A stretch of 64,000 nt of DNA from Patescibacteria group bacterium (GTDB taxonomy: Bacteria > Patescibacteriota > Saccharimonadia > Saccharimonadales > JANWIN01), in contig DATIHJ010000019.1 of NCBI GenBank assembly GCA_035480855.1, positions 16,096 through 80,095 of the forward strand, read 5' to 3'. Position 1 is the stretch's first letter. The number at the start of each line of letters is the position of its first letter. The position numbers and the translations under genes are program-made. The notes below the pieces were generated by a model. That model was not told the DNA's origin. It worked only from the letters and a program-made list of their open reading frames with translations, and searched no databases. This document shows positions 25,466-52,848 of the stretch, in pieces.

Positions 25466-27064
25466 ATGAGTCAAGACGCTCGCCTCGATGAAGAGCAGGC
25501 AACTGCCAGGCGTGCCCGTATTTTGGGCATGAACTTTATTGATACCTCACAGCTAGTAGATAAAACCTTGCACAAAGAAATATTAGCGGTTCCAGAATTA
25601 TACCGGTTGAGGGTAATACCAATTCAGGCCGATCCGCATAATATTACTTTTGGGATTACTACCACTACATCTCAGCAAACTATGACTAATTTGCGTCAGC
25701 GTTTTCAAGACCAACAGATTAACTACGCATTAATTTCTGACAATGGCTTCCGTGATTATATGCGACTATATGATCCCCCTAAAAAGGTGGTTTACAGTGA
25801 CATTCAGATTAGCGGGGGTTCTGATGACATAGTCAAGCAAGTATCAGCTATATTAGATCAAGTCCGGGCAGACGATATGCTGGCATATCTAGTTCAGCAA
25901 GCCCATAAACTCAATGCATCTGATATACACGTAGAAAATCAGAAAGAGAATGTACGAATTCGCTTTCGTATAGATGGTGTGTTGCACATGGTGGCCCGTC
26001 TCACGCATGAGAAAACTCGAATGCTAATAGCCGCCATTGCTAGTGCAGGCAATATTTCTACTTCTTCTACAGAGGCCCAGCAGGGGCATATCGCCCAAAA
26101 AGTTCGTATGGTAGAAGGTACGGAAGTGGATATTAATTTGCGTGTAGAAGCTGTTCCCGCAATAAACGGTATGGACATCGTCATGCGCTTATTTAACCTG
26201 GACCCTAGCATGTTTACGCTTGACAGGCTGGGTCTTTCTGCAGACGAGCGAAAGGTAGTGGACGCAATTATAAGTAAGCCCAGTGGGCTCCTGCTAGCAG
26301 TTGGACCGACCGGCTCTGGCAAGACCACTACCCTTTATTCAGTTCTTAACTCGCTAAAAAGCGAGGAGCGAAAAATCATCACAATTGAAGACCCTGTGGA
26401 ATATCAGTTTGATGGTATTACACAAATTTCCGTCGCAACGCAGGATGGTGGGCAGGCTAACTTTGCAGAGAAACTCCGGGCTGTGCTGCGGCTAGACCCA
26501 GACATTGTTATGGTAGGTGAGATACGCGACATGGACACTGCGAAGACAGCTCTACAGGCTTCGCTAACTGGACACTTAGTATTGTCTACTTTCCATGCGG
26601 CGACGGCGTCTGCGGCTTTGACACGTCTTATGGACATCATTAACGAAAACCCGCTATTTGTTTCTGCAATCCGGTTGATTATGGCCCAGCGGCTTGTGCG
26701 GCGTTTAGACGACAAACTAAAACAAGCCTATAAGCCAGATGAAGTTACGCTTGCTACTGTTCGCAAAGTTATAGATTCCCTACCACCTGGAGTCCAAAAA
26801 CCTGATCTTACAAACGCACAATTGTATAAACCTGGCACTTCACCCGAGAATCCATTTGGCTATAGTGGCCAGTTAGCTCTGCGTGAGCAGTTTACTGTTA
26901 CAGGCGAAATTGAGCTCCTACTACGTAGTGGTAAGAAGTTTACTACTGATGATATCGAGGCAGCGGCTGTAAAAGGTGGTATGACTACCATGTTGCAAGA
27001 CGGTATACTCAAAGCCCTTGCTGGCCAAACAACTCTAGAAGAAATCTACCGGGTAGTCGGCTAG
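25466..27064 (+). CDS. Type IV pilus / type II secretion assembly ATPase (PilB/GspE family)
   Basis: 532 aa with an N-terminal T2SSE_N-like domain, Walker A GPTGSGKTTT, the Asp box, Walker B (IVMVGEIRD) and the His box (TGHLVLSTFH). Confidence 0.88.
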   Translation: MSQDARLDEEQATARRARILGMNFIDTSQLVDKTLHKEILAVPELYRLRVIPIQADPHNITFGITTTTSQQTMTNLRQRFQDQQINYALISDNGFRDYMRLYDPPKKVVYSDIQISGGSDDIVKQVSAILDQVRADDMLAYLVQQAHKLNASDIHVENQKENVRIRFRIDGVLHMVARLTHEKTRMLIAAIASAGNISTSSTEAQQGHIAQKVRMVEGTEVDINLRVEAVPAINGMDIVMRLFNLDPSMFTLDRLGLSADERKVVDAIISKPSGLLLAVGPTGSGKTTTLYSVLNSLKSEERKIITIEDPVEYQFDGITQISVATQDGGQANFAEKLRAVLRLDPDIVMVGEIRDMDTAKTALQASLTGHLVLSTFHAATASAALTRLMDIINENPLFVSAIRLIMAQRLVRRLDDKLKQAYKPDEVTLATVRKVIDSLPPGVQKPDLTNAQLYKPGTSPENPFGYSGQLALREQFTVTGEIELLLRSGKKFTTDDIEAAAVKGGMTTMLQDGILKALAGQTTLEEIYRVVG

Positions 27065-32234: not shown

Positions 32235-33020
32235 ATGAAGTTAGTCGAACATTTACCTTTATTGGATCAAATAAAGGGTGAACCTCCAGTCAAATTAGAC
32301 CTCTCACAAACAGTCATGCCTGAAGATGTTGATTTTACCTTTATAGGTACCGAACATCATGATGAAGCAGGAGAGCCCGACTATTTGAAAGAAGTACTAA
32401 CTGATACAGACATATATATGCCAGAATTTGCAGGCTGGGATGCCGAACTAAAAAAGCGTTTAAATCGTGTAGCTCGTGGTGACTATAAGGCGCTTGTAAA
32501 AGTTAGGCAGGAGCACCAACGGCAAGGCACTGAAAAACATACCAATATGGCTAGATACAAGTCTGCTGCCGATGAAGCACTATACAACACAGGAGTTAGG
32601 GTAGAGCTAGTAGATTATCCACATAAACATGATGATTTAGTTGAATGGGATAGGTGGCATAGGGGTAGGAGAGCTCACAACGAAGAAGCTTATCCTATGT
32701 ATCTAGGTAGAGACCAGCATATTCTGGACAGTTTGGTTTCTGCTATCCAGCGTTTGCGTACAGATGATAGTAAAATAGCAGCGAGAGTTCCGTTAAGAAT
32801 TGTTATGGCATTTGGGCTGGCTCACCTGTCTTTGCAGGATGCTTTAGCCCATGCAGCGGCGGAACAAGGCATTACTACTTTTCAATCGCGTAAATTATTT
32901 GAAGAAACACCGACTCTCAGAAGTAATAGTTTAACCCTTAATGGATCAGAGGCAGCTGAACTAAATGACAGATTCAGCCATATTGTCGGATACCAAAACT
33001 GGCTGAGAGAAGAAGTCTAG
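32235..33020 (+). CDS. Hypothetical protein (261 aa) with paired GTEHH / GLAHL motifs
   Basis: Called from the ORF. The motifs IGTEHH (32346-32360) with a downstream MPEF, and GLAHL (32814-32828), resemble the duplicated GxxH...E pattern of the TraB/TIKI/ChaN/EreA-like superfamily. This assignment is tentative. Confidence 0.45.
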   Translation: MKLVEHLPLLDQIKGEPPVKLDLSQTVMPEDVDFTFIGTEHHDEAGEPDYLKEVLTDTDIYMPEFAGWDAELKKRLNRVARGDYKALVKVRQEHQRQGTEKHTNMARYKSAADEALYNTGVRVELVDYPHKHDDLVEWDRWHRGRRAHNEEAYPMYLGRDQHILDSLVSAIQRLRTDDSKIAARVPLRIVMAFGLAHLSLQDALAHAAAEQGITTFQSRKLFEETPTLRSNSLTLNGSEAAELNDRFSHIVGYQNWLREEV

Positions 33021-33043
33021 CACTCTTGACATGCGAGTGCCAG
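33017..33043 (+). promoter_or_regulatory. CIRCE-like inverted repeat (HrcA operator-like) overlapping the clpC promoter
   Basis: CTAGCACTC-N9-GAGTGCCAG matches the consensus TTAGCACTC-N9-GAGTGCTAA at 15/18 positions. The N9 contains the -35 TTGACA (33026-33031), and TATTAT lies at 33050-33055. Confidence 0.55.
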
Positions 33044-33087
33044 TTTGTGTATTATTGAGTAGTTAAGTATAAAAATATTATTAGAAG

Positions 33088-33102: not shown

Positions 33103-35610
33103 ATGATGCCAAACAGTCCAGATTTCAATGAGTTCACTAACCATTTAACGGACAACGCTCGTCTGAGCCTGCGTCACGCTGAAGCCATTGCGAGAGGTTT
33201 TGGCAGCGCATATATTGGAACTGAGCATTTGTTACTTGGCGTCTTGGCACAAGACTCATCTATGGGTGCAAAACTACTTGAAGACGTAGGTGTAACCCTG
33301 GACCGCGCTCGGCTAGCCCTTAACCTTACTCCTAAAACACTGGTTATCAATATGGGCGCTAAGGGTCTCAGTGAAACAGCGAAACTCACTCTAAAGATGG
33401 CATATGAAGTTGCCCAGGATTACAATCAGGAATACTGCGGCACAGAGCACATCTTATACAGTATCCTAAACCAAAAGAATGCCCGTGCAACTGTACTTAT
33501 GCGTGATATGAACGTGAATGTAGATCAGCTATTAAACGGCTTAGAACAATTCCTAAACCGCCAGCAATATGAGGATACTAATGAGTCTGAGTCCACTGGC
33601 ACTCGTAGGCGCAGCGGTGGCAGCAAGCGCCAGCGCAAAACTGCACTTGATTACTATGGTACTGACATGACAGCCCAGGCCCGTGACGGTAAGCTTGACC
33701 CAGTAGTTGGCCGCGAGGCACAAATTCGCCGAGTTATTACTATCCTAAACCGCCGTACCAAAAATAACCCGGTACTAATAGGTGAGCCAGGAGTTGGTAA
33801 AACTGCCATAGTCGAGGGTCTTGCCCAGCGTATTGTGGCAGAGGATGTGCCTGATGGCTTGCTAGACAAGCGCATTATTGTACTTGATCTAGCTGGCATG
33901 ATTGCTGGCACTAAATATCGAGGTGAGTTCGAAGAGCGCCTCAAAAAAGTTATGAGCGAGCTTGAGAATGACAAAAAGACTATTATGTTTATTGACGAGC
34001 TACATCTCATAGTTGGCGCTGGCGCAGCCGAGGGCGCTATGGATGCCGGTAATATTCTAAAACCCGCACTTGCCCGCGGCAAAATGCAGGTTATTGGCGC
34101 TACGACAACCGCTGAATACACTAAGCATATTGAAAAAGATGCCGCTCTTGAACGACGCTTTCAACCCATTCAAGTACCAGAGGCTACAGTGCCAGAGACA
34201 TTGTCTATCCTAAAAGGATTACGCAAACACTACGAGGCCTTCCACAACGTGACTATCACGGACCTAGTATTAGAAGACACTGTTACTCTAGCTAAACGCT
34301 ATATTAATGACCGCTACATGCCAGACAAAGCCATAGACTTGCTAGACGAAACAGCAGCCTACTTGCGTGTAGACAAGGGTAAGACCCCACCAGATGTCCG
34401 CCGTTTGCAAAAAGAGCTCAAGCTAGTAAATAGTCAGATTGACGATGCGGTGGATAACGAAGACTACGAAAAAGCCGCTCAGCACAAAACTAGGGCCAGC
34501 CAAATAAGCGAGGAACTCAAACAACTGCAATCAAGTGGCAAGGGCGTAAACAGACTGACGCTTGCAAGTGATGATGTGGCTGAGGTTGTTGCCCGCATGA
34601 CAGGCGTTCCTGTCAAAAAGGTTATCCGTGCAGAGGCTAAGTACCTAATAAATCTAGAAAAAACACTTAGTAAATATGTCATAGGTCAGGATGAGGCTGT
34701 TGAAGCTGTTTCTAAGGCCGTCCGACGCAACCGCTTGGGAATAAGCAGCGGCGCCCGCCCAATTGGTTCGTTTATATTCCTAGGCCCCACCGGTGTTGGT
34801 AAAACTGAGCTAGCTCGTGTTCTGGCCCGTGAATTTTTTGGCAGTAGTGAAGCCCTAGTTAAGATTGATATGAGTGAGTTTGGCGAGCATCACAACGTAG
34901 CGCGTCTTGTCGGTGCACCCGCTGGCTATGTAGGCTACGATGATGGTGGTCAGCTGACAGATAAAATTCGCCGTCAGCCTTATAGCCTAGTATTGTTTGA
35001 TGAAATCGAAAAAGCCCACCCTGAGGTCTTCAACATGCTCTTGCAAATGCTGGAAGACGGCGTCTTAACAGATGCCAAAGGTCGTAAGATTGACTTTACA
35101 AACACTATTGTCATTATGACCAGCAACATTGGTGCCCAGAAGCTTCAAAAAGAGGCAGGACTAGGATTCCAGGCCACCAGCCCAAGTGATCTTAAGGATC
35201 TAGACTCATTGCATAAGAACAACAAGGACAAGGTGCTCGATGAGCTCAAAAAGACTATGCGTCCAGAACTACTTAACCGCATAGACAAAACCATAGTCTT
35301 CCGTGCCCTGACCAAGAAAGACGCGTTAAAAATCCTGGATCTTCAGATAGAAGAACTCCGCCAACGTTTAGTCAAACATGGATTGGGCCTGGATGTTTCA
35401 CTTGCAGCCAAACAGCACTTGCTAGAGGAAGGCTACGACGCACTAAACGGTGTACGACCGCTACGTCGATTGCTACAAGACACCATAGAAGACCAGATTG
35501 CCCTTGAAGTACTGGACAACCACTATCAAAAAGGCGATATCGTAGCAGTTAACGTGAAGAAAAAAGAACTAACTTACTCGGCAGCTTCAGAAGTACCCAC
35601 CAAGCGCTAA
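33103..35610 (+). CDS. clpC: ATP-dependent Clp protease ATP-binding subunit ClpC
   Basis: 835 aa with two Clp_N repeats, two AAA+ modules ([16 protein letters not shown]) and a UVR motif between them. The C-terminal domain follows the second module. Confidence 0.93.
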
Positions 35611-46729: not shown

Positions 46730-46814
46730 GCGGATGTGGTGGAATTGGTAGACACGCTAGCCTTAGGAGCTAGTGCCGCAAGGCGTGAAGGTTCAAGTCC
46801 TTTCATCCGCACCA
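46730..46814 (+). tRNA. tRNA-Leu (anticodon UAG), class II with a long variable arm and encoded CCA
   Basis: Manual cloverleaf. The acceptor is GCGGATG/CATCCGC, the anticodon stem is CTAGC/GCTAG with loop CTTAGGA, the T-arm is GAAGG-TTCAAGT-CCTTT, the discriminator is A, and CCA follows. Confidence 0.9.
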
Positions 46815-50783: not shown

Positions 50784-51170
50784 ATGAGCAAGACAGGTAA
50801 ACTATTAAAGCATATTTACTACGGCCAGTTTAAAAATGGCGCGGAAGATCTTCATGTTGATAATGCCAACGAATTATCAGATCGTGAAGGGACTAAACGC
50901 CTTGTTGGAAGTACAGCACTGTATTTAACGCTTATAACTGCAGAATTGGTTAGGAATAAGCCAATAGGGTTGGCAATCGTTACCGGAATAGGCGGTATAC
51001 TTTTACGCCGACAGTATCAAAATACACAAACACAGCACATAGATTTAATGGAATCTGAAACCACAATAAAAACTGAAAGTGATGATTATAGAGACGTTCA
51101 GTCTATACCCATTACAGATACTTCAGCACAGGCGGATGCAGTTAGCGCAAATTACCTAAGTAATCTTTAA
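50784..51170 (+). CDS. Hypothetical protein (128 aa) with a central hydrophobic segment
   Basis: Called from the ORF. TATAAT at 50773-50778 lies 5 nt upstream of the ATG. It looks AT-rich relative to its neighbours by eye. Confidence 0.4.
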   Translation: MSKTGKLLKHIYYGQFKNGAEDLHVDNANELSDREGTKRLVGSTALYLTLITAELVRNKPIGLAIVTGIGGILLRRQYQNTQTQHIDLMESETTIKTESDDYRDVQSIPITDTSAQADAVSANYLSNL

Positions 51171-51188
51171 ATAAACGAAGCTGACTAA

Positions 51189-51215
51189 TTAGCACTCTTG
51201 ACAGTAGAGTGCTAA
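51189..51215 (+). promoter_or_regulatory. Perfect CIRCE element (HrcA operator) overlapping the clpP promoter
   Basis: TTAGCACTC-TTGACAGTA-GAGTGCTAA is an exact 18/18 match to the CIRCE consensus TTAGCACTC-N9-GAGTGCTAA. The N9 carries the -35 TTGACA (51198-51203). Confidence 0.8.
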
Positions 51216-51226
51216 TTTCATATTAT
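51198..51226 (+). promoter_or_regulatory. clpP promoter (TTGACA-17 nt-TATTAT)
   Basis: A consensus -35, a 17-nt spacer and TATTAT at 51221-51226. The AGGAG Shine-Dalgarno lies 7 nt before the ATG at 51250. Confidence 0.65.
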
Positions 51227-51249
51227 GGATATACAAATAGGAGAAAACA

Positions 51250-51882
51250 ATGTTTGCACAAGATGATTCTAACGTTAAGAAAAAGAGCCAGGTACTTGTA
51301 CCGACAGTAATTGAAAACGAGGGACGCTACGAGCGAGCCTATGACATTTATAGCCGGCTGCTACGTGAGCGTATTATCTTTTTGGGTTCAGACGTTAACG
51401 AAGTTACCGCAAACCTTATAATTGCCCAGATGTTGTTCCTCCAGGCAGATGATGCCAAAAAGGACATATTTTTATACATCAACAGCCCAGGCGGCAGTGT
51501 ATACGATGCGCTAGCTATTTATGACACTATGCAATACGTAGGCAACGATGTGCAGACAGTTGGCATTGGTGTGCAGGCTTCTGCGGCTGCTTTCCTGCTC
51601 AGTAGCGGTGCCAAGGGAAAAAGATTCTTGCTACCAAACGCTACCGTCATGATTCACCAACCTTCTAGCGGCAGCAAGGGCAAAGTCACAGACCAAGAGA
51701 TTGACCTTAAGGAAGCCTTGCGTGTAAAGAGACTCATGGAACAGATTATGTCTAAAAACACTGGTCAGAAGGCTGACAAGATCCACACGGATATGGAACG
51801 CGACTTTTGGATGACTGCCCCGGAAGCCAAAAAGTACGGTGTAGTAGACGCTATAATTAGCACACCTCCAAAACTCAAGTAG
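51250..51882 (+). CDS. clpP: ATP-dependent Clp protease proteolytic subunit
   Basis: 210 aa. The context of the catalytic Ser (VQASAAAF), His (MIHQP) and Asp (ERDFWM) is conserved. Confidence 0.94.
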   Translation: MFAQDDSNVKKKSQVLVPTVIENEGRYERAYDIYSRLLRERIIFLGSDVNEVTANLIIAQMLFLQADDAKKDIFLYINSPGGSVYDALAIYDTMQYVGNDVQTVGIGVQASAAAFLLSSGAKGKRFLLPNATVMIHQPSSGSKGKVTDQEIDLKEALRVKRLMEQIMSKNTGQKADKIHTDMERDFWMTAPEAKKYGVVDAIISTPPKLK

Positions 51883-52035: not shown

Positions 52036-52848
52036 ATGTCCAACGTTTCGCCACAGAATTTCGAATATAAGTTAGTTAATCCAACTAAACTTTCAGACAC
52101 TGAACACGATGAGTTTAACGGCTTATATAGGGCTTCGGTTGAAGTAGATTTCCCTGGTCGCTCACAAGCTGAGTATGACTACTTTATTAATAACCTTGAA
52201 AAACAGCGACGTAAAGTTAATGCAGGAGTTGGGGGCCCTTTTCAAAGAAAAAACCAGCGATATGGATCTCCACTTGCTGCAGTAATATTAGATCGTTCTC
52301 ATAATCTGCATGGTGTTATATCTGGAACAGTCAATGTATCTACCAGCGCAGAAGAAAAATTAACGGATAGAGTCGGAGCAAAGCTTGGTAAAAAAGCCGG
52401 TAAGGTAGTAGGACTAGTAGTTGGCAAACCATTAGGTAAGTTAGAGATGGCTGCTAAAATGCATTCCGACACACTGCATATTAATAGATTAGTGCCAAAA
52501 AAATGGGCTTCATTAGGTTCACGAGCGTTTAGTCTATCTTTACTTGAAGGTATTCAAGATACTGGTGATGTCAGTGCCGCTGATGTTGGAGTGCATCACA
52601 TACTAGAAAAGCGCGATCCTAGAGAGCAGGTTTCTTCGTGGCCATATGTAGGCGAGAGACTTTGGAGTCCTTATCTTACGAGCATAGGTGTTACATATAC
52701 TGGTGAACCGTTTGAGTGGCGATGGGTATTTGGAGAAGATGCAACGCCAGTTGTACAATTTCGCCACACAAACTCCGGAGTACACGAAGTATTGGATATA
52801 ATCTCTCAAAAACCAGGCGCACCGGAGGCCATAGATCAATCCAAATGA
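52036..52848 (+). CDS. Hypothetical protein (270 aa)
   Basis: Called from the ORF. An upstream extended -10 (TGGTATAAT) and a GAGG Shine-Dalgarno are present. It has a K/G-rich internal segment and no recognised domain. Confidence 0.45.
   Translation: MSNVSPQNFEYKLVNPTKLSDTEHDEFNGLYRASVEVDFPGRSQAEYDYFINNLEKQRRKVNAGVGGPFQRKNQRYGSPLAAVILDRSHNLHGVISGTVNVSTSAEEKLTDRVGAKLGKKAGKVVGLVVGKPLGKLEMAAKMHSDTLHINRLVPKKWASLGSRAFSLSLLEGIQDTGDVSAADVGVHHILEKRDPREQVSSWPYVGERLWSPYLTSIGVTYTGEPFEWRWVFGEDATPVVQFRHTNSGVHEVLDIISQKPGAPEAIDQSK

Follow-up and report, generated by a model that had tools for sequence, protein, structure and literature searches.

In the 64-kb window, meaning the whole stretch of DNA that was analysed, the gene for the protease subunit ClpP lies on the forward strand behind an inverted repeat that matches the CIRCE operator of the heat-shock repressor HrcA. 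The repeat encloses part of the predicted clpP promoter, and the gene follows it closely. Coordinates are those of the window, and the features of the locus are as follows.

51189..51215, no strand assigned: CIRCE operator 1, exact, with left arm 51189-51197, spacer 51198-51206 and right arm 51207-51215
51198..51203, plus strand: -35 hexamer TTGACA of the clpP promoter, from the promoter scan, within the CIRCE spacer
51221..51226, plus strand: -10 hexamer TATTAT of the clpP promoter, from the promoter scan, 17 nt after the -35
51239..51243, plus strand: Shine-Dalgarno-like AGGAG, read from the sequence, with 6 nt between it and the ATG at 51250
51250..51882, plus strand: clpP, 210 aa, by ClpP family score and with the catalytic Ser/His/Asp retained

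The ORF at 51250-51882 scores 286 bits against the NF001368 model, with a cut-off of 249, and its alignment to 6mx2 keeps the serine in 'AS' as well as the MIHQP and ERD motifs. It is flanked by ORFs of 128 aa (50784-51170) and 270 aa (52036-52848), neither of which has a family match. Both flanking ORFs are also called in an independent contig (L001), and the 270-aa ORF is called in another (L002), while no homologues of either were found among the fetched Saccharibacteria loci.

Positions 51189-51215 read TTAGCACTC TTGACAGTA GAGTGCTAA, with 0 mismatches against the CIRCE consensus TTAGCACTC-N9-GAGTGCTAA, as a first, sequence-only reading of this DNA had claimed. Only two CIRCE matches with up to 3 mismatches occur in the window (51189-51215 and 33017-33043), a number reached in 0 of 100 dinucleotide shuffles, which gave 0.06 such matches on average. 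From base composition (45% G+C), an exact CIRCE is expected about 1e-6 times per 64 kb, and a chance origin of the clpP site is ruled out by the shuffles together with this expectation. The probability that TTGACA would fall anywhere within the 9-nt spacer is about 0.001. The same 27-mer is present in L001 and L002, two assemblies of the organism that were made independently from other sequencing runs. The L002 contig, from SRR9179559, starts at the first base of the palindrome (L002:1-27), perhaps because the assembly broke at the inverted repeat.

The promoter described by the same reading, TTGACA-17-TATTAT with its -35 hexamer inside the operator spacer, was recovered by the promoter scan, with 11 of 12 positions matching the sigma-70-type consensus. 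The operator ends 34 nt and the -10 hexamer 23 nt ahead of the ATG, and the transcription start is predicted at about 51233, giving a predicted leader of about 17 nt that contains the AGGAG. The terminator scan called no terminator between the end of the upstream ORF at 51170 and the operator, so read-through transcription may also reach clpP.

The clpC operator and the lineage of the window

The second CIRCE match had escaped the sequence-only reading, and it lies 18 kb upstream of the first, in the promoter of a gene for a ClpC-type unfoldase.

33017..33043, no strand assigned: CIRCE operator 2, CTAGCACTC-TTGACATGC-GAGTGCCAG, with 3 outer mismatches and an exact 6+6 core
33026..33055, plus strand: clpC promoter, with TTGACA at 33026-33031, an 18-nt spacer and TATTAT at 33050-33055
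33103..35610, plus strand: ClpC-type AAA+ unfoldase, 835 aa, by alignment to solved ClpC/ClpC1 and with an LGF ClpP-docking loop

The core GCACTC-N9-GAGTGC is exact, the operator ends 59 nt ahead of the clpC start, and TTGACA begins at the first spacer position, as it does at clpP. The 835-aa ORF aligns end to end with the ClpC proteins of S. aureus and B. subtilis and with ClpC1 of M. tuberculosis (E = 1e-226 to 1e-233), whereas its alignment to ClpB is only piecemeal. The features expected of ClpC are present, namely a Clp_N domain, two AAA+ modules, a short middle domain and the [LIV]GF loop, here 'GLGF' at the ClpP-docking-loop position. Since clpP and clpC both carry the operator, both halves of the ClpCP protease have the element.

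On its 3' side, clpC is followed by a coiled-coil ORF and then radA. On its upstream side, no ctsR-mcsA-mcsB genes were found in the window, and nusA and a 261-aa ORF (32235-33020) stand there instead. The 261-aa ORF has no Pfam or NCBIfam match, and its TAG stop (33018-33020) falls within the left arm of the clpC operator. The CtsR-type repeat RGTCAAA-N-A-N-RGTCAAA, with up to 3 mismatches allowed, occurs 12 times in the window and never within 1 kb of 33017 or 51189, in agreement with the earlier remark that no CtsR operator is visible.

That remark had been made against a Firmicutes background, a frame that does not fit this DNA, as the window proteins share 78-84% identity with their counterparts in Candidatus Saccharibacteria MAGs (ClpP with L049, RpoB with L062, NusA and ClpC with L096). 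The window derives from a metagenome assembly, and its genome belongs to Saccharibacteria (Patescibacteria/CPR). The window and Saccharibacteria MAGs also have gene order in common, both in nusA-x-clpC and in tig-clpP-x-rpoB. Neither hrcA nor dnaK nor groEL was found within the 64 kb. A 532-aa ORF (25466-27064) considered as GroEL was rejected, being a type IV pilus ATPase of the PilB/GspE type, and ORFs of 234 and 237 aa were likewise rejected as HrcA. No hrcA locus sharing genes with the window was found among the fetched loci. A tRNA gene at 46730-46811 is unrelated to the operators.

Operators and HrcA in related genomes

A scan for GCACTC-TTGACA-NNN-GAGTGC, the operator with its embedded -35 hexamer, was carried out with one genome per species and returned at least 120 loci. 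About 100 of the matches listed are labelled Saccharibacteria or other Patescibacteria, and the remainder belong to a few Chloroflexota, mitis-group streptococci and singletons. Each site was oriented and the first gene downstream identified. Among the matches listed, the first genes in Saccharibacteria encode DnaK (40), a short HrcA (14), Hsp20 (12), a ClpC-type ATPase (9) and ClpP (4), with 1 further ClpP in another MAG, and those in other Patescibacteria are mainly HrcA (9), ClpB-sized ATPases (2) and DnaK (2). A -10 hexamer lies 16-18 nt after the embedded TTGACA at 108 of 122 sites among the matches listed.

The sequence-only reading had suggested checking whether groES and dnaK carry CIRCE as well. 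At the level of the lineage, dnaK does, with the 40 sites just given. Among the matches listed, no groES or groEL was found downstream of the 79 Saccharibacteria sites or elsewhere in the fetched Saccharibacteria loci, and groES appears as a target solely in Dehalococcoides (L041). With groES absent among the Saccharibacteria targets listed, the classical GroE feedback loop is undocumented for the lineage.

The number of operators differs among promoters. A second CIRCE (up to 4 mismatches) is present in 37 of 47 dnaK promoters among the matches listed (for example L012, L019, L026 and L038) and begins 18-22 nt after the first, just past the -10, so that the two form tandem operators. Single operators are found at the clpP and clpC promoters and at 14 of 15 hsp20 promoters among the matches listed. 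The two clp genes can also be neighbours: in L029 they are adjacent, each with its own CIRCE, and in L074 they form a clpC-clpP operon, with the genes 4 nt apart and one CIRCE ahead.

Some further features of the sites concern sequence and taxonomic spread. The outer arm positions of the 122 sites among the matches listed (L003-L122) read YTRGCACTC...GAGTGCYAR. Arm positions 3 and 25 tend to covary across these sites (A/T in 87, G/C in 14, mixed in 21, among the matches listed), which may represent a lineage-specific preference of HrcA or selection for symmetry. CIRCE with TTGACA also precedes genes for FmdB-family zinc-ribbon proteins in three Chloroflexota MAGs (L014, L021, L032) and, in a Waddliaceae MAG (L100), an ORF of 231 aa that has no annotation.

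The HrcA proteins of Saccharibacteria, other Patescibacteria and a Dialister genome are 226-242 aa long. They score on the hrcA models and keep the winged helix-turn-helix, covering model positions 1-124 and the C-terminal part, while about 100-120 central residues of the canonical 338-358-aa HrcA are missing. Examples are the following.

L069:4245-4946: short HrcA
L036:1616-2317: short HrcA
L064:4727-5410, minus strand: short HrcA
L024:2719-3414: short HrcA
L075:4950-5675: short HrcA

At least 8000 near-identical relatives of the short form are present in the database, under the JGI name 'heat-inducible transcriptional repressor'. An unselected sample of hrcA genes was formed from loci that had been retrieved via a dnaK site and not via the operator of hrcA itself. 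Among the matches listed, 22 of the 22 evaluable genes in this sample carry a CIRCE (3 mismatches at most) about 50 nt ahead of their start, the classical signature of autoregulation. The gene hrcA is present and abundant in the lineage, where it carries the same operator, and it is predicted for the genome of the window.

For clpP, loci were also sampled blind to the operator. With the window ClpP as query, 80 metagenome clpP loci were fetched, and the 300 nt upstream of each were scored for CIRCE. At ClpP identities of at least 64% (L123-L131), a CIRCE with up to 3 mismatches was found in 8 of 9 loci, its end 18-34 nt ahead of the aligned start of ClpP, whereas at identities of 60% or less it was found in 0 of 71, the best match having at least 6 mismatches. 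The gene tig lies upstream in 8 of the 8 CIRCE-positive close loci. The one close locus in which CIRCE was not found upstream of clpP is L130 (ClpP 65% identical); there, clpP is preceded by a GC-rich terminator hairpin and then by an AT-rich promoter of its own (L130:430-600).

Placed side by side, 14 clpP upstream regions have conserved arms and unrelated flanks. The TTGAC-type -35 begins at offset 9, 10, 11 or 13 from the start of the site, and in 12 of the 14 regions there is a TAnnnT -10 located 16-18 nt further on, the exceptions being L129, with no -10 found, and L062, with the hexamer GATAAT. Such a shift of the -10 in step with the -35 is expected of a real promoter rather than of an extended repressor site, and it bears out the pairing of hexamers proposed for clpP by the sequence-only reading. 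For clpP of L124, L125, L126, L127, L128, L131, L071 and L062, no more than 6-9 nt separate the end of the -10 from the start codon, a distance that makes sense only if transcription starts there and that suggests leaderless mRNAs in these relatives. The -10 ends 6-9 nt before the start codon at hrcA and clpC loci such as L003 and L007 as well.

Proposed regulation and alternative explanations

The CIRCE at clpP is probably a functional HrcA operator set within a near-consensus promoter of the sigma-70 type, and ClpC and ClpP would then belong to the HrcA regulon of the lineage. The two 9-bp arms flank the -35, and the right arm occupies the first half of the spacer between the -35 and the -10. 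With the arms enclosing the -35 and the upstream half of this spacer, a bound HrcA dimer would cover the promoter from roughly -44 to -18 and would exclude RNA polymerase sterically. Under proteotoxic or heat stress, HrcA would be inactivated and the strong clpP promoter would fire. It is established in B. subtilis that GroEL, the keeper of active HrcA, is titrated by unfolded proteins, and a similar step may operate here. An operator of the same design at clpC would bring ClpC and ClpP under common control with dnaK, hsp20 and hrcA of the lineage as one regulon.

Binding, repression and induction by HrcA are inferred from the established behaviour of HrcA and CIRCE in B. subtilis, Chlamydia, Mollicutes and others. 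The proposal of the sequence-only reading, that Clp proteolysis has been drawn into the HrcA regulon through an operator overlapping the promoter, nonetheless gains support from the clpC site, from the pattern across the lineage, from the difference between close and distant clpP loci (8 of 9 against 0 of 71) and from the joint shift of -35 and -10 among relatives.

The weight given to promoter occlusion could be misplaced if HrcA acts chiefly as a roadblock, or the palindrome as an RNA element, on transcripts reading through from tig and the 128-aa ORF. The absence of a terminator-like site between the ORF at 50784-51170 and the operator would allow this, and there is a parallel in M. pneumoniae, where transcription of lon comes from the trigger-factor promoter and a CIRCE precedes lon (PMC7737663), a layout of tig followed by a protease gene similar to the one here. 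Against such a mechanism stand the perfect -35 in the spacer with a -10 at 17 nt, a pairing kept in relatives despite the shift in register, and the many relatives in which the -10 is only 6-9 nt from the start codon. As the principal role of the site it is unlikely, with promoter occlusion then secondary. It is also compatible with HrcA acting at the promoter, and because there is no terminator ahead of clpP, a roadblock on read-through may contribute, as for tig-lon in M. pneumoniae.

It is far less probable that the inverted repeat serves as an intrinsic terminator or as an RNA hairpin that ends the transcript of tig and the 128-aa ORF, with the CIRCE match incidental. The RNA at 51175-51240 does form a hairpin of 12 bp (-16.5 kcal/mol, z = -3.1) with a U-rich stretch after it, yet the terminator scan did not call the repeat, which moreover embeds a promoter, and the clpC site shows no stronger folding than its shuffles (z = +0.76). 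Beyond what pairing would demand, the arms are also conserved in primary sequence, in many species and ahead of five unrelated gene families.

Equally improbable is a CIRCE-like site recognised by another regulator in place of HrcA, or left as an unbound relic (for example after loss of hrcA), for while no hrcA was found in the 64-kb window and the HrcA of the lineage is shortened, the perfect consensus argues against decay, a second site is kept at clpC, the hrcA genes of the lineage bear the same operator, and the short HrcA is both abundant and strongly conserved.

With HrcA acting at the clpP and clpC promoters as the preferred explanation, the promoter-embedded CIRCE at clp genes can be described as a conserved habit of the Saccharibacteria lineage, in which the chaperone switch has been extended to the Clp protease. 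The novelty is modest. CIRCE on clpP has precedent, and the finding is a regulon assignment in an under-studied lineage and not a new mechanism; the understanding of HrcA and CIRCE themselves is unchanged by the clpP and clpC operators. The genomes of Saccharibacteria and other CPR bacteria are tiny and encode few regulators, and to our knowledge almost nothing about gene regulation in these bacteria is known experimentally. A full-text literature search found no paper treating HrcA or CIRCE in Saccharibacteria or Patescibacteria, only incidental co-mentions.

The regulon outlined here, comprising a short HrcA, a CIRCE around the -35 and the targets dnaK, hsp20, clpC and clpP, is concrete and directly testable. 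Its promoters are well defined and near consensus, and could be of use in genetic work on cultivable strains such as Nanosynbacter. A bolder and distinctly tentative extension is that the shortened HrcA might be the single master of proteostasis in Saccharibacteria, and beyond them in Patescibacteria at large, governing DnaK, Hsp20, ClpC and ClpP, and apparently not GroES/EL, through promoters with the -35 inside the operator, the operators being doubled at dnaK, and that it may sense stress without GroEL feedback. If this were true, ultra-small, episymbiotic bacteria would possess a minimal heat-shock circuit of a distinct kind.

Comparison with known systems

The closest reference is the class I heat-shock control of B. 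subtilis, in which HrcA and CIRCE act on the dnaK and groESL operons (Zuber and Schumann 1994 and Mogk et al. 1997, as cited in later papers). The operator consensus is the same, the repressor is likewise a winged helix-turn-helix protein of the HrcA family, and the hrcA and dnaK genes of the lineage bear the operator. The targets differ, as those in Saccharibacteria include clpP, clpC and hsp20, with groES not among the targets listed, and so does the protein, which is about 100-120 residues shorter. The position of the operator differs too, as it wraps the -35 here and is located downstream of the promoter in B. subtilis.

Control of clp genes by HrcA is known from other bacteria. L. gasseri clpL is one precedent, and clpP of S. 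salivarius is under both CtsR and HrcA (Chastanet and Msadek 2003, J Bacteriol 185:683, as cited in PMC3842655 and PMC6305308). The likeness, as far as these accounts of the S. salivarius work extend, is a clpP gene under HrcA. On the same accounts, CtsR also takes part in S. salivarius, a Firmicute, whereas in the Saccharibacteria window no CtsR box is detectable near the clp genes, clpC is included and the -35 lies inside the operator.

The CtsR class III regulon of Firmicutes (clpP, clpC, clpE) is analogous in that a heat-sensitive repressor acts on the clpC and clpP promoters, and the order of clpC followed by radA is shared. The window differs in having no heptad direct repeat near either clp gene and no CtsR-, McsA- or McsB-like ORF before clpC, and in having CIRCE as the operator. 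The HrcA regulon would here fill the place that CtsR holds in Firmicutes.

In Mollicutes, the HrcA regulon comprises dnaK, dnaJ, clpB, groESL, lon, pepA and pip (PMC7737663, PMC5138195). The likeness to Saccharibacteria extends to a small genome, to HrcA as the main regulator of proteostasis over an ATP-dependent protease, a Clp/Hsp100 ATPase and chaperones, to tig upstream of a protease gene, and to tandem copies of CIRCE on some promoters. The differences are that HrcA is full-length in Mollicutes, that the protease is Lon there and ClpCP here, and that the phyla are distinct. The operators described here suggest one repressor for the chaperones and the ClpCP protease in the Saccharibacteria lineage, in parallel with the arrangement in Mollicutes with Lon.
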